From Escherichia phage PECP20, in sequence record OQ873415.1: a DNA stretch of 64,000 nt. The stretch is one strand, 5' to 3'. The position numbers and the translations under genes were made by a program. Positions 19,905 through 53,935 of this stretch are shown here, piece by piece. Numbering within the stretch: position 1 is the stretch's first letter; every line of letters begins with the position of its first letter. The notes under the pieces are model-generated. The model saw only the letters and a program-made list of their open reading frames with translations. It had not been told where the DNA came from and made no database searches.

Positions 19905-20270
19905 TTAGATATCAAATTCATTAAGAACTACATCAAAGATTGCTTCGAGATGTTCAGGTTTAGCTCGGTTACTCAGGATATGACGAATCCAGGTTTTAAC
20001 CAGAAGTTTACGATTAACACCATTCCAGCAAGGATGAGTACCTAAATCGCGCTGACGGAAATCATCATCTAATGCAATTTTAAAATTTGAACCTTCCATC
20101 GTGATTGAAACCGTGATGCCATTTTCAAATCGCATATAAACATAATTAGGAGTCATGCACTGTTCGATTTCACAAACTGTACCGTTTTCGTGTTTCCATA
20201 AGCAAATAACTTCAGAAGAACCAGCGATACCGTTAGAAACATATTTACGTTCGAAGTTGATGTAGTTCAT
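19905..20270 (-). CDS. hypothetical protein (121 aa)
   Basis: ATG at 20270 preceded by SD GGAGAA and an early promoter cassette. Confidence 0.5.
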   Translation of the reverse strand: MNYINFERKYVSNGIAGSSEVICLWKHENGTVCEIEQCMTPNYVYMRFENGITVSITMEGSNFKIALDDDFRQRDLGTHPCWNGVNRKLLVKTWIRHILSNRAKPEHLEAIFDVVLNEFDI

Positions 20271-20300
20271 TTTATTCTCCAGATGTTTAAGTTGTTTGTT

Positions 20301-20340
20301 GGTACAGGTATATAATAACATATCCTGTACCAAAGTAAAC
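20301..20340 (-). promoter_or_regulatory. early promoter embedded in a palindrome
   Basis: Minus strand GTTTAC (plus 20335-20340); inverted repeat GGTACAGG/CCTGTACC (20301-20308 and 20324-20331) flanks the AT-rich -10 region. Confidence 0.45.
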
Positions 20341-20344
20341 TGTT

Positions 20345-20713
20345 TTATGCAACTTTAATCCAATTGTCTAAATTTAAAACACCTTTGGCTTTCATTTTTT
20401 CGATCAGGTTATCTGCTGTAATGCGTCCATTTTGATACCATGTAACATCTTCAGAGTAACCAGTTTCTTCGTCAACATATGTTTCTGAGCGAATTTTACC
20501 GGTAATAATAGTTTTTAATTCGTATGTGTCACCTGTGAAAAAGTTTGCTAACACAATTTTCCAAGAGAAATCATTTGAAGGACCTTCAGGGGTCATACAA
20601 CTTACGAACTCAAATTGCTCTTTGTATAACATCCACTGGAATTCTTTAATTTCGATAGCTTTATAACCGTCGTGTTCTTTACATTTGATGTATGAGTTCA
20701 GATTGATTTTCAT
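20345..20713 (-). CDS. hypothetical protein (122 aa)
   Basis: ORF with its own upstream promoter cassette. Confidence 0.5.
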   Translation of the reverse strand: MKINLNSYIKCKEHDGYKAIEIKEFQWMLYKEQFEFVSCMTPEGPSNDFSWKIVLANFFTGDTYELKTIITGKIRSETYVDEETGYSEDVTWYQNGRITADNLIEKMKAKGVLNLDNWIKVA

Positions 20714-20755
20714 TTTATTCTCCAGTTTGTTTTATTGATTAGGTGGTACAAGTCT

Positions 20756-20784
20756 ATAGTAACACATCCTACAGGAGAGTAAAC
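20756..20784 (-). promoter_or_regulatory. early promoter
   Basis: Minus strand GTTTAC (plus 20779-20784), 17 nt, TACTAT (plus 20756-20761). Confidence 0.45.
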
Positions 20785-20810
20785 ATCTTTTTAAACTTTT
20801 TCTGCCCTAA

Positions 20811-20838
20811 ACGCACAAAAGGGAGACCGAAGTCTCCC
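20811..20838 (-). terminator. rho-independent terminator
   Basis: Minus strand GGGAGACTTCGGTCTCCC then TTTTGTGCG; the 24 nt including the hairpin are identical to the gene 32 terminator at 35551-35573. Confidence 0.65.
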
Positions 20839-50674: not shown

Positions 50675-51135
50675 TAATAAAGGTCCTCTGAATAAAGTTC
50701 TTTCTCACTTCCGCCACGTTCAATACGTACCTGTCCAGCATACGTTGCAATAATCATTGCTTCTTCACGTGTCCAGTAATTAGAGTATTGGTCAATAAAG
50801 CCTTGGTCGTCACCACAAACTTGTTGCGAGACTAATTGAGGACCGACTATGTCAAGTACTTCAGCCATATCTTTAGAGTAATGACGAACTCCAGGAATAA
50901 CCAGAGTTCCACCACTCTTCAATTTAAACCTATTAGCTGCACATACTATAACACGTTGAACTTTTTGGTCATTGTTCCAATAGCACGTTTGCCAACAGAT
51001 TTCAGGAACTTCATTCATTATATCATCAGCAGAATAATTATAACCGTAGGACTGGAATTTTTCTGCTAGACTTTCAGGAGTCTCACGAGACAAGGCTAAA
51101 TCTAATAGCTCTAAACGTTCTTTAAATGATTTCAT
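50674..51135 (-). CDS. hypothetical protein (153 aa)
   Basis: ORF in the asiA-motA accessory cluster. Confidence 0.55.
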
Positions 51136-51461
51136 TTAAACCATTCCTTAATACGTTGCCAAATAGATTTTTGTGCTTGTTTATTTACACCAATCGAACG
51201 AATAACCGGTTGTGACTGCTGATATTCTTTATAATCTTCTTTATAGATTTCGTAAGCTGCATCAACAAATGAACTGATCGCTGCCATGTAGTTTTTACGA
51301 AGGCCAAATGGCGCGTCATTATTTTCACGAATAACCGTATATTGGCCTGCTTTAATCTTTACAATTGTCCCTAAATAAGCCCCGTGGTACCAAATATCCC
51401 ATCCTTCCTGAGTAGGTTCTGCACATTTACGAAGTTCGTTAATAATATTCAGCTTATTCAT
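51132..51461 (-). CDS. hypothetical protein (109 aa)
   Basis: ORF coupled (ATGA) upstream of the 153-aa ORF. Confidence 0.55.
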
Positions 51462-51471
51462 TATGTATTCC

Positions 51472-52104
51472 TCACAGTACGTTAGTTACAAGGGTAATGA
51501 TTTCTTTGGACACATTAGGGAAGTCAATGTAAGTATATTTACCACCGATTTTAATCTTAACATCATTTTCAAGAGAAGTAAACAGCTTTGATTCAGTTTC
51601 TGACATGTTGTATGCAAAGATTCTAAGAGCGCCATCTCGTCGAATTTCAATTTGGCGAATGCCTAGAACTCGTTTAGCGAATCGAACTTCTAAGTTACTA
51701 CGGTTTTCACCAATTTCTTTAACTTCAACTTTATCTTTAATATTTTCAAAAACAAAGTTCGCTAGTTCATGCATTTCAGGAGTAACTCCACGTGCTTTTC
51801 TGGTGTTACGTTTCTGGAGAAGTTCTGGAGCATTTTCTTGAGCAAATAGGTCTGCAGCTTTTTGGATAATATCCATTGCTTCGCCGGTTGCCACAAGTCC
51901 ATCACCGGATTTTTCGACTAAACCTTTTTTAATCAATACACCAATGTTAGAGTTAACAACCGATGCATTGTATTCCGCTTTCAGAGCTTCACGGACATTG
52001 GCAGCAGTGGTGAAGTTGTTCTTAATGATATAAACCATTATTGCAGCAGTTTTTTCATTCAGAGCGTTTTCAGAAGCTTTGATGATGTAAGTAACTTTAG
52101 ACAT
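51472..52104 (-). CDS. motA: MotA middle-promoter transcription activator
   Basis: 210 aa; MSKVTYIIKASENALNEKTAAIMVYI...NSNIGVLIKKGLVEKSGDGL, T4 MotA-like. Confidence 0.92.
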   Translation of the reverse strand: MSKVTYIIKASENALNEKTAAIMVYIIKNNFTTAANVREALKAEYNASVVNSNIGVLIKKGLVEKSGDGLVATGEAMDIIQKAADLFAQENAPELLQKRNTRKARGVTPEMHELANFVFENIKDKVEVKEIGENRSNLEVRFAKRVLGIRQIEIRRDGALRIFAYNMSETESKLFTSLENDVKIKIGGKYTYIDFPNVSKEIITLVTNVL

Positions 52105-52140
52105 TTTATTTCTCCAAATTAGTATTTGTTTGATAGGTCT

Positions 52141-52169
52141 ATAATATCATGTTTGAAGCAAAAGTAAAC
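52141..52169 (-). promoter_or_regulatory. early promoter cassette for motA (copy 1 of a tandem pair)
   Basis: Minus strand GTTTAC (plus 52164-52169), 17 nt, TATTAT (plus 52141-52146). Confidence 0.55.
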
Positions 52170-52206
52170 TTTATTTTGGGCTCTTTTTCAAAAGCCCTGG
52201 TAAAAT

Positions 52207-52422
52207 TTACAAACTCATTTCTTTAATAAGGCTAATAAGTTTTGCCTTTTTAGAACGAAGCTTTTCTAAATGATGTCCATTTGAACCGCGAACCACTAAA
52301 GAATTGATTTCAACTTCTAAGAAATTTAATTCTTCAACAAGTGCTTTACGGAGAGCATTCATACCAGGTTTAACTTTACCGAAACGAGTAGTTGTGTTTT
52401 GGGTTAATTTCATTTTAGACAT
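52207..52422 (-). CDS. hypothetical basic protein (71 aa)
   Basis: ORF flanked by the two near-identical promoter cassettes; its start context GACATTTTATTTCTCCAA is duplicated from motA. Confidence 0.5.
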   Translation of the reverse strand: MSKMKLTQNTTTRFGKVKPGMNALRKALVEELNFLEVEINSLVVRGSNGHHLEKLRSKKAKLISLIKEMSL

Positions 52423-52461
52423 TTTATTTCTCCAATTTGGTTGTTTTGTTTTGATAGGTCT

Positions 52462-52490
52462 ATAATATCATGTTTGAAGCACATGTAAAC
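52462..52490 (-). promoter_or_regulatory. early promoter cassette (copy 2 of the tandem pair)
   Basis: Near-identical repeat of 52131-52169 (TGATAGGTCTATAATATCATGTTTGAAGCA...GTAAAC). Confidence 0.55.
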
Positions 52491-52510
52491 TGTTTTGTGA
52501 GAAAAAAATG

Positions 52511-52533
52511 CACAAAAGGGAGCTTCGGCTCCC
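52511..52533 (-). terminator. rho-independent terminator downstream of gene 52
   Basis: Minus strand GGGAGCCGAAGCTCCC then TTTTGTGCATTTTTTT. Confidence 0.6.
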
Positions 52534-52609
52534 TAATCATGTTTGTCCAACCAATACAGCCAAATCACTAGTGCAGCTATTGCACCGAGAAATCCTAAGG
52601 CTAGGGCAC

Positions 52610-53935
52610 TCAAAGTGCCTCCAAGTCTTTAGTGTACTCTGACACAACATCAGTAGACTTCCAATACTCATTTTCTTCTTTCTTAGCTTTAGCTTCTTCT
52701 GCTAGTTTACGTGCTTCGTCAGAAGTGATATGGAAGATGTTAAGACCTACCAATTTATCGATATGTTCTTTATACATTTCGATTTGTGCTAGCTCTTCAG
52801 TCAAAGCTTTACGAGTCTTGCCTTGAATCACAATTTCGCCACTGATAACTTTTTTGATGAAGTGTGCCTTAGCAAAAGCCAGTTTAAATGCTTTTTCAGA
52901 TTCAATGATTTTGTTATCAATACGTTTCTGAACGTAAGTCTTACGGACTTCAACAAAATCTTTGATTAAGTCCACTACGTTATCGTAGACCGTTAATTTA
53001 CCCTTTTCATTAATCACTGTGATGTTTTGTGAACGACGTTCGATGAGACTAAAATCTTTCATGATTTTTTCATGACGTAGCTCTTCATCATCAGGAAGCG
53101 AGTACTCTTTACGGAACTTCACCTTAAACCCAAAACCGTGTTCACCACAATCATCTTCCCATGAGATTAGACCTTTGTCTTCCAACGGGTCAAGAACCTT
53201 ACTCACATACGTTTCACGGTCGAATTTATATGGGATTTCAGTTATCTGCATTTGAGTGCGAGATGTGAACTTATATGTTCCGTGAATCTCATAACGCCCA
53301 TCAACTTCATGCACTTCACCGCGGAATTCCGGGAATTCAACTTTTGGTTTAGTGACATTTTTACCTTGAAGAGCTTGTAATACAGCCTTTTTGACCGATT
53401 TAAAACTATGAGGCAGAATATTTGTTGCGTAACCGGTTGCAATACCAGAGACACCGTTCAAAAGAACTGTCGGAATAATAGGAAGATAGAATTTTGGTGG
53501 AACGTGTTCTTTATCTTCATGAGCTGGAGCATATTCGGTATCTTTATAGACATTATAGAAATTTTTGCTTACACGAGCAAAAATATAACGAGATGCTGCA
53601 GCTTTTTGGACTGTTCGAGAACCAAAGTTGCCTTGACCATCTAATAGTGGATAGTTGTTATTCCATGTGTTAGCCATCAATGCACCTGCATCTTGTGCAG
53701 AAGATTCACCATGGTGATAACCTAAATCTGCAACACCGCCTGCAATTGACGCAAGTTTATGAAATTTTTCTTTATTACCACGAGCCAAATCTAATGCACG
53801 ATGAACCACAAAACGTTGAACCGGCTTAAATCCATCAATCATGTTTGGGATTGCACGGTTTTCAACGGTGTACATAGCATATGCTAAGGCTTCGTTATCA
53901 ATAATACTTTTTAGATTACGAGAATTCAATTGCAT
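52610..53935 (-). CDS. 52: gp52 topoisomerase II medium subunit (GyrA-like)
   Basis: 441 aa; MQLNSRNLKSIIDNEALAYAMYTVENRAIPNMIDGFKPVQRFV, T4 gp52-like; T4 gp52 is 442 aa. Confidence 0.95.
   Translation of the reverse strand: MQLNSRNLKSIIDNEALAYAMYTVENRAIPNMIDGFKPVQRFVVHRALDLARGNKEKFHKLASIAGGVADLGYHHGESSAQDAGALMANTWNNNYPLLDGQGNFGSRTVQKAAASRYIFARVSKNFYNVYKDTEYAPAHEDKEHVPPKFYLPIIPTVLLNGVSGIATGYATNILPHSFKSVKKAVLQALQGKNVTKPKVEFPEFRGEVHEVDGRYEIHGTYKFTSRTQMQITEIPYKFDRETYVSKVLDPLEDKGLISWEDDCGEHGFGFKVKFRKEYSLPDDEELRHEKIMKDFSLIERRSQNITVINEKGKLTVYDNVVDLIKDFVEVRKTYVQKRIDNKIIESEKAFKLAFAKAHFIKKVISGEIVIQGKTRKALTEELAQIEMYKEHIDKLVGLNIFHITSDEARKLAEEAKAKKEENEYWKSTDVVSEYTKDLEAL

Follow-up and report, generated by a model that had tools for sequence, protein, structure and literature searches.

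In the 64,000-nucleotide stretch of Escherichia phage PECP20 analyzed here (record OQ873415.1; hereafter the window), the region upstream of motA, the gene for the activator of middle transcription, recurs in front of a neighboring 71-aa ORF (ORF71). This raises the question of how a small gene came to sit between two copies of one regulatory region and whether, as a preliminary description proposed, it was inserted there recently. The window belongs to the RB69 group of T4-type phages (genus Mosigvirus), and positions 51400-52700 are 99.6% identical to Escherichia phage CCU7 and 99.5% identical to Shigella phage Shf125875. Every gene at the locus is carried on the − strand, the order in the direction of transcription being gene 52, ORF71, motA and arn.4 (51132-51461). 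The conserved gene upstream of the slot, gene 52 (52610..53935), encodes the medium subunit of topoisomerase II, as annotated for gp52 in Shf125875, RB69 and JS98, and its product shows 81% amino acid identity to JS98 gp52. The conserved gene downstream, motA (51472..52104), was correctly identified in the preliminary description, as were the strings that it quoted and its ORF coordinates; the product matches Pfam MotA_activ (2.4e-39) and MotCF (2.2e-08) as well as phrog_1345, and is 70% identical to JS98 MotA. ORF71 itself, the cassette-flanked accessory gene, appears in the ORF list at 52207..52422.

Directly after gene 52 lies an unannotated hydrophobic ORF of 26 aa (52533..52613, − strand; translation LSALALGFLGAIAALVIWLYWLDKHD, then stop), whose TTG start overlaps the gp52 stop as TTGA. 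This ORF has no annotation in RB69 or Shf125875. The divergent Mosigvirus ESCO47 encodes a 28-aa version with an ATG start and an ATGA overlap, and the two share a conserved ...LALGFL...WLD(K/R) pattern. The same position is held by an annotated 34-aa ORF in UP19 and by the 49-aa motA.1 in T4, and the 26-aa ORF is the positional analogue of T4 motA.1. Annotators of such genomes should expect both ORF71, which is unannotated in ATK47, and a small ORF after gene 52.

Global alignment of the two upstream regions confirmed the near-exact recurrence that had been described. Copy A (52096..52178, − strand), which covers the stretch between the third motA codon and a point 9 nt upstream of the −35 element, and copy B (52414..52499, − strand), the equivalent span for ORF71, share 75 of 86 aligned positions (87%); two indels, of 1 nt and 2 nt, fall in the 5′UTR. 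They contain an exact 32-nt block, TGCTTCAAACATGATATTATAGACCTATCAAA (52129-52160 and 52450-52481), that spans the spacer, −10 element and start region, and an exact 22-nt block, TTGGAGAAATAAAATGTCTAAA (52096-52117 and 52414-52435), that spans the Shine-Dalgarno (SD) sequence, the ATG and two further codons; the start-to-start spacing is 321 nt for the promoter block and 318 nt for the ribosome binding site (RBS) block. With a tolerance of up to three mismatches, two occurrences of each block, and no more, are found in the 64-kb window, while 100 shuffles gave mean counts of 0.00 and 0.01 and two matches were reached in none. In both copies the order of elements is an A/T-rich stretch, GTTTAC, a 17-nt spacer ending in TGA, TATTAT, a 5′UTR of ~35 nt starting AGACCTATCAA, GGAG, a 7-nt gap and ATG-TCT-AAA. 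Copy B harbors the −35 GTTTAC at 52485-52490, TGn and the −10 TATTAT at 52462-52467 and the SD GGAG at 52430-52433, with A/T-rich sequence upstream, a B-type 5′UTR and the ATG-TCT-AAA of ORF71. The corresponding elements of copy A are located at 52164-52169, 52141-52146 and 52112-52115, all on the − strand, with A-rich sequence upstream, an A-type 5′UTR and the ATG-TCT-AAA of motA. The −35 region of copy A reads ...CCCAAAATAAA-GTTTAC and is positioned 37 nt past the ORF71 stop codon, and that of copy B, TTTTGTGCATTTTTTTCTCACAAAACA-GTTTAC, follows the stop of the small ORF. The two ORFs therefore share a start context and promoter, as the preliminary description stated, and in addition the 5′UTR and RBS. 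Its term tandem duplication is loose in that only a regulatory cassette of ~85 nt is repeated, as direct repeats around a unique gene. An assembly artefact was considered separately and rejected, the arrangement being seen in >75 independently sequenced genomes.

Because T4-type early promoters are highly conserved in any case (PMC2988021), we compared all early-promoter-like sites with one another. Among the 15 such sites in the window the A/B pair ranks first of 105 pairs, with an ungapped identity over 60 nt of 78%, compared with 39 ± 9% for all pairs and 68% for the runner-up; the likeness of the two regions is thus more than early-promoter consensus. A generic promoter/terminator scan of the window, used for coordinates only, found promoter-like sites not to be enriched (16 found versus 15.9 expected). 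In principle, the likeness of the copies might involve no homology-driven process and reflect shared constraint on strong T4-type early promoters and optimal ribosome sites. T4 early promoters are indeed unusually information-rich, combining UP, −35, TGn and −10 elements with extra consensus (PMC2988021), and the promoter core is highly conserved across genera. However, the A/B pair is an outlier among the promoter pairs of the window, its identity runs through the nonconsensus spacer and the UTR into three codons, and, as described below, UTR variants are swapped between copies by strain and deletions end exactly in the shared blocks. We find constraint alone scarcely credible as an explanation. 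Purifying selection may lie behind part of the promoter-core identity; between genera, 3 of 41 nt in the core differ while dS is ~1.1.

Each cassette is preceded by a stem-loop. The one before copy B (52500..52534, − strand) folds as GGGAGC-CGAA-GCUCCC followed by UUUUGUGCAUUUUUUU (−14.6 kcal/mol, z = −3.6 by RNA folding), is listed by the terminator scan and is present at the equivalent place in T4, RB69 and JS98. It is intrinsic-terminator-like and would close the gene 52 transcription unit. The loop of this gene-52-side hairpin (52517-52534) reads GGGAGC-CGAA-GCTCCC in the window, RB69 and UGJNEcP2 and is inverted, GGGAGC-TTCG-GCTCCC, in Shf125875, O157 typing phage 3 (O157tp3), ST2 and others; such an inversion between nearly identical genomes looks like a hairpin-templated (template-switch) event. 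The stem-loop before copy A (52178..52197, − strand), GGGCUUUU-GAAA-AAGAGCCC, has 8 bp and a GNRA loop (−12.3 kcal/mol, z = −3.7). No U-tract follows the copy-A hairpin, which makes a terminator role for it uncertain. In JS98 the same hairpin takes the form GAGCUCUU-GAAA-AAGAGCUC (−12.8 kcal/mol, z = −5.8) and differs from that in the window at two base pairs, with a compensatory replacement of A-U by G-C and a replacement of C-G by U-G. It is also found before the motA promoter in UP19, behind an unrelated 75-aa ORF (ORF75).

The GGAG of both copies is embedded in GGAGAAAUAAA, which matches the RegB/S1 consensus GGAGRAYARAA at 9 of 11 positions. The deviations fall at positions 7 and 8, and position 8 is among the best-conserved A's of the consensus (PMC1702504). 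RegB/S1 targets consist of GGA(G) and an A-rich 7-nt consensus in single-stranded RNA at the RBS of an early gene, and the mRNA of T4 motA, in which the cut falls within GGAG, is a good substrate (PMC1702504). Since T4 motA is a known substrate and 9 of 11 positions fit, GGAGAAAUAAA is a possible site, and it is tempting to speculate that this putative cleavage site, being common to both copies, would allow ORF71 to share the early shut-off of motA.

What the cassettes enclose is a small protein of narrow distribution. A homology search of the 71-aa product found no match in Pfam, one PHROGs family with no assigned function (phrog_6200) and a weak match to phrog_4535. In a search of 5.8 billion proteins only eight clusters were recovered, all at least 72% identical, with no remote homologues and no sign of ORF71 at other loci. 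The AlphaFold model (pLDDT 76) is a helical hairpin formed by residues 23-44 and 50-70; the N terminus is basic and predicted to be disordered, and a basic, conserved RFGKVKPGMN segment precedes the hairpin. Comparison of the model with the PDB returned nothing significant, the best match, among designed proteins and WHEP domains, having E = 0.6; given such a match and so generic a helical hairpin, we draw no functional inference from the structure. Our guess would be a host-directed early protein.

We next consider which phages carry this gene. A tBLASTn search with ORF71 identified 93 phage records, 76 of them at the Mosigvirus level (at least 86% amino acid identity) and 17 of Dhakavirus type (72-78%), the latter including JS98, Bp7 and IME08. 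No second copy of ORF71, as unequal crossing-over might generate, was found by this search, which hit a single place per record in 93 of 93. About 151 records match the locus at a DNA identity of at least 90%, and comparison of this number with the 76 ORF71 records indicates that roughly half of the Mosigvirus genomes do not carry ORF71, these population counts being BLAST summaries of GenBank phage records that include duplicate and partial records. Thirteen Mosigvirus loci were read base by base, and a scan of IMG/VR with MotA added two loci only, both empty alleles. In genomes that lack ORF71, the locus aligns in two pieces that together account for 82% of the query and span ~981 bp, compared with 1301 bp in the window. 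The gap between gene 52 and motA is 185 nt in RB69 compared with 505 nt in the window, a difference of one ~320-bp repeat unit. Thus, in RB69 and others exactly one unit is missing and one cassette is left.

The empty sites are chimeric, and at least three kinds of junction can be distinguished. In RB69 the B-upstream half (terminator, CTCACAAAACA, GTTTACATaTGC) is followed by an ATAT spacer and a 5′UTR of the A′ type, a makeup that places the crossover in the 32-nt block. In O157tp3, phiE142, p000v and ESCO47, the B-upstream half is followed by ATGY and a B-UTR fused directly to motA, with the crossover in the 22-nt RBS/start block. The empty site of mar005P1 combines the B-upstream half with an A-type TTTT spacer and a B-UTR. 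The B-UTR-to-motA junction is present in 58 records at 99% identity or more; among the records listed, few show the arrangement of RB69. In the distances measured over the 3′ end of gene 52 and over motA, filled and empty alleles interleave: the empty mar005P1, for instance, is 1.2% from the filled NHEP10.

The preliminary description took the near-identity of the cassettes as the mark of a young duplication and ORF71 as recently inserted by recombination between them. In keeping with this, one unit exactly is missing from half of the close relatives, among them the type phage RB69, the cassette copies are very similar, and entry of a gene by such a route is real elsewhere, in phage NBG2 (see below). 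The comparison with Dhakavirus, however, speaks strongly against it. In JS98, an ORF71 orthologue occupies the equivalent position, and the two cassettes and the hairpin are there as well. At the amino acid level, ORF71 shares 74.6% identity with its JS98 orthologue, within the range of its neighbors (MotA, 70%; Arn.4, 78%; gp52, 81%), and its divergence by the Nei-Gojobori method (dS 1.20, dN 0.24, ω 0.20) parallels that of motA (dS 1.05, dN 0.23, ω 0.22). These values show that ORF71 is a genuine gene, subject to purifying selection, whose divergence kept pace with that of its neighbors. The arrangement thus most likely predates the split between Mosigvirus and Dhakavirus. Further, the O157tp3-type empty sites carry, fused to motA, the UTR that lies before ORF71 in filled genomes of the window type, which is the junction expected from a deletion between copies, and the similarity of the cassettes is accounted for by continuing exchange, as haplotypes with the A′ UTR or the B UTR in both copies attest. 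A recent insertion is therefore very unlikely. The simplest history would start from an ancestor of Mosigvirus and Dhakavirus in which the slot was filled, with repeated loss and exchange between the copies thereafter.

A second alternative has the empty site as the ancestral state, with the ORF71 module entering an ancestor of either Dhakavirus or Mosigvirus once, long ago, and then spreading horizontally, from one lineage to the other and among Mosigvirus strains, by homologous exchange guided by the cassettes, so that most empty alleles would be primary. The single cassettes of T4 and RB69, each with an upstream half that matches copy B, fit such a scheme, as do the documented import of a module between genera in NBG2 and the interleaving of filled and empty alleles in flank distances, which frequent exchange would produce. 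Indeed, an empty site such as that of RB69 could represent the original state and not a deletion, and a module passed horizontally, long ago, between the lineages of Mosigvirus and Dhakavirus could match the observed divergence as well. On the other side, the agreement in dS between ORF71 and motA across the genera means that any transfer would be about as old as the split; and, of the three empty junction types, two place a B-type UTR before motA, whereas the motA UTRs of RB69 and of Marfavirus F48 are close to the A-type of the window, a pattern for which deletions are the simplest account. We consider a primarily empty slot unlikely. We hold instead that ORF71 is, in all probability, an old accessory early gene that resides in a slot bounded by cassettes of the PeSL type discussed below and that is lost or exchanged by homologous recombination on these cassettes.

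That such recombination also moves sequence between the two copies is apparent from the filled genomes. Because these differ in the 5′UTR carried by each copy (copy B/copy A: B/A in the window and Shf125875, A′/A′ in ST2 and phiEC1, B/B in NHEP10 and UGJNEcP2), the haplotypes indicate that sequence was exchanged between them in both directions. In ST2 and phiEC1 the presence of the A′ UTR in both renders the copies identical over ~75 nt. Likewise, the two cassette cores of JS98 match each other at all of 41 nt and depart from the pair of Mosigvirus cores at two shared positions (CTTTAAAC versus CTTCAAAC; TACTAT versus TATTAT); between genera, the cassette copies thus appear to evolve in concert. 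The exchange seems to extend into coding sequence. The RBS and start of Mosigvirus ORF71 are identical to those of motA and the protein begins MSK, whereas all Dhakavirus orthologues begin MNK and have another RBS context. Since Marfavirus F48, which has no ORF71, carries the same motA RBS string as Mosigvirus, the data suggest that the RBS and start were copied from the motA copy to the ORF71 copy. By these comparisons, ongoing exchange between copies would keep the recombination substrate intact and could overwrite the RBS and N-terminal codons. Recombination between cassettes, as the preliminary description envisaged, is thus borne out by the mosaic haplotypes and by the NBG2 import, in which both crossovers fall in the cassette, but for this locus the description erred on how recent the event was and on its direction.

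ORF71 is one of several genes found in the slot. In Dhakavirus UP19 and Tequatrovirus NBG2, the 52-motA slot holds ORF75, with one residue different between the two phages. In Winklervirus CBH8, a Serratia phage, it holds a 223-aa HExxH protein (999-1670), in which the motif is HELAH; this gene has its own early promoter and may be a small metalloprotease-like accessory gene. In T4 the slot is empty downstream of motA.1. ORF71, ORF75 and the CBH8 protein are unrelated to each other and to T4 motA.1. A three-way alignment of NBG2, T4 and UP19 narrows the route by which ORF75 reached NBG2. NBG2 is T4-like (97%) as far as ...GTACTATACAACTATCAA; it is then ~99% UP19-like through the UTR, ORF75, the hairpin, the second promoter and GGAGATTAAAATGTCTAAA, and becomes T4-like again inside motA, where UP19 is only ~72% identical. 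As the likeness switches at GTACTATACAACTATCAA and after GGAGATTAAAATGTCTAAA, both crossovers map within the cassette, and NBG2 has acquired an entire Dhakavirus-type module. The ORF75 family comprises 168 phage records. In Salmonella phage S16 (Gelderlandvirus; 1510-1905), an ORF75 homologue is located between the homologues of nrdC.10 and nrdC.11, flanked by two early-promoter cassettes with nearly identical 5′UTRs. The position of ORF75 beside motA in Tequatrovirus and Dhakavirus but between nrdC.10 and nrdC.11 in S16 shows that the same small gene can occupy different cassette slots by genus.

Two further observations concern cassettes outside this slot or this genus. The window contains a second cassette-flanked module (20252-20825, − strand) around a 122-aa ORF (20345-20713). 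Its first part consists of a terminator hairpin, GGGAGACTTCGGTCTCCC, with a T-run, followed by a GTTTAC...TACTAT promoter; its second promoter has an 8-bp inverted repeat (GGTACAGG/CCTGTACC) that straddles the −10 element. At the end of each copy stands CTGGAGAATAAAATG, within which the RegB/S1 optimum GGAGAAUAAAA is found without deviation, and the promoter pair is the second most similar in the window (68%). In the Klebsiella phage F48, a different gene lies upstream of motA, and the motA promoter, 5′UTR and RBS (870-945; …AGACCTATCAAAACAAAT…TTGGAGAAATAAAATGTCTAAAGTT) are ~93% identical to Mosigvirus over 70 nt, far more conserved than the synonymous sites of motA.

Taken with knowledge of T4 and RB49, these features suggest how the slot might work. 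The slot lies between gene 52/motA.1 and motA, with a copy of the composite regulatory cassette at either end, and each copy would give its downstream gene its own immediate-early promoter, read by the host σ70 polymerase, and its own translation start, and the hairpins would insulate the downstream gene and limit read-through from upstream. The homologous recombination of the phage would act on the direct repeats (the 32- and 22-nt blocks, up to ~75 nt in some strains) with three outcomes. The ~320-bp unit may be deleted, possibly as mini-circles, to leave a single chimeric cassette as in RB69, O157tp3 and mar005P1; patches may be copied between the copies, 5′UTRs both ways and, for Mosigvirus ORF71, the RBS and three initial codons of motA; and whole modules, such as the ORF75 module of NBG2, may be swapped between co-infecting phages of different genera. 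In the genome comparisons, the cassettes mark the endpoints of deletions, of transfer between copies and of exchange between genera. A wider reading, possible if doubtful, joins these elements: the copied unit would be a complete expression module (5′UTR, RegB-type GGAG/A-rich RBS and first three codons) by which slot genes join the immediate-early, rapidly shut-off regime of motA, and the ~50:50 polymorphism of filled and empty sites among ~150 Mosigvirus isolates would be kept because ORF71, for instance as an inhibitor of host defence, is useful only on some hosts. The 52-motA interval offers an unusually clean natural case of how a T4-type phage gains, loses and swaps accessory genes without dedicated recombinases: one slot displays three unrelated occupants, three empty junctions, three filled haplotypes and an import across genera with its two breakpoints narrowed to short segments of the cassette. 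For engineering of such phages, it would be a natural place to insert cargo.

The arrangement invites comparison with several known systems. As an analogy only, it resembles integron gene cassettes in that single promoter-proximal genes are gained, lost or swapped at a fixed slot bounded by repeats. In contrast to integrons, however, there is neither an integrase nor attC/attI sites, general homologous recombination between regulatory repeats takes their place, and each phage cassette brings its own promoter. The motA promoter region of T4 shares with the window phage the terminator hairpin, ...CACAAAAC(G/A)-GTTTAC-N-TAYTAT, ...CTATCAA..., GGAG and ATGTCTAAAGT; it differs in its RegB site, which by our count fits 10 of 11 consensus positions compared with 9 of 11 in the window phage, and in that the window phage has the whole region a second time, before another gene. 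As with T4 motA.1, the 52-motA interval holds small lineage-specific early genes, but the hydrophobic 49-aa motA.1 lies upstream of the cassette, in overlap with the stop codon of gene 52, whereas ORF71 lies between cassettes.

The closest parallel is provided by the PeSLs (promoter-early stem-loop cassettes) of T4-type phages, for which modular shuffling was described by Arbiol et al. 2010 (PMC2839356) and Comeau et al. 2014 (PMC4122927). A PeSL is a composite intergenic element of ~100 bp that comprises the stop codon of the gene upstream, an A/T-rich region, a stem-loop, a σ70-type early promoter, an SD sequence and a start codon, and in the deletion model two PeSLs surround an ORFan in one phage while a sibling has a single chimeric PeSL (PMC2839356). 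Both copies at 52-motA read GTTTAC-N17-TATTAT, with TG upstream of the −10, and fit the T4/PST PeSL promoter consensus TTTACW-N17-TAYWAT (PMC4122927). Each has an A/T-rich stretch after the upstream stop codon, a stable stem-loop by the promoter (−12.3 kcal/mol for copy A and −14.6 kcal/mol for copy B) and an SD and start codon at its 3′ end, and the 75/86 identity is spread over the whole cassette. An ORFan between two cassettes is set against a single chimeric cassette in RB69, O157tp3, mar005P1 and others. PeSLs are found preferentially in hyperplastic regions, upstream of ORFans; the 52-motA slot is variable across genera and ORF71 belongs to an ORFan family of eight clusters, while the flanking genes 52 and motA are conserved. 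At the sequence level, the promoter, the A/T-rich stretch, the stem-loop, the SD with start codon and the association with indels that define a PeSL-flanked ORFan module are all present. Both stem-loops are placed before the −35, which is among the five published positions, whereas in the RB49 PeSLs they are mostly found over the hexamers or between them. Published PeSLs also have demonstrated promoter and terminator/attenuator activity and form excised mini-circles. The main text of the two papers (PMC2839356, PMC4122927) contains neither the 52-motA locus nor RB69, and JS98 only for the gene 43 locus. They make pairwise comparisons; here, three filled and three empty haplotypes, three occupants and homogenization into the RBS and first three codons are seen at one locus. 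Cassette shuffling is a mechanism already known in T4-type phages, and no new mechanism is involved; the 52-motA case is a new and well-documented instance, which adds the RB69/JS98 group, and the promoter of the key regulator motA, to the known range of PeSL-type shuffling.
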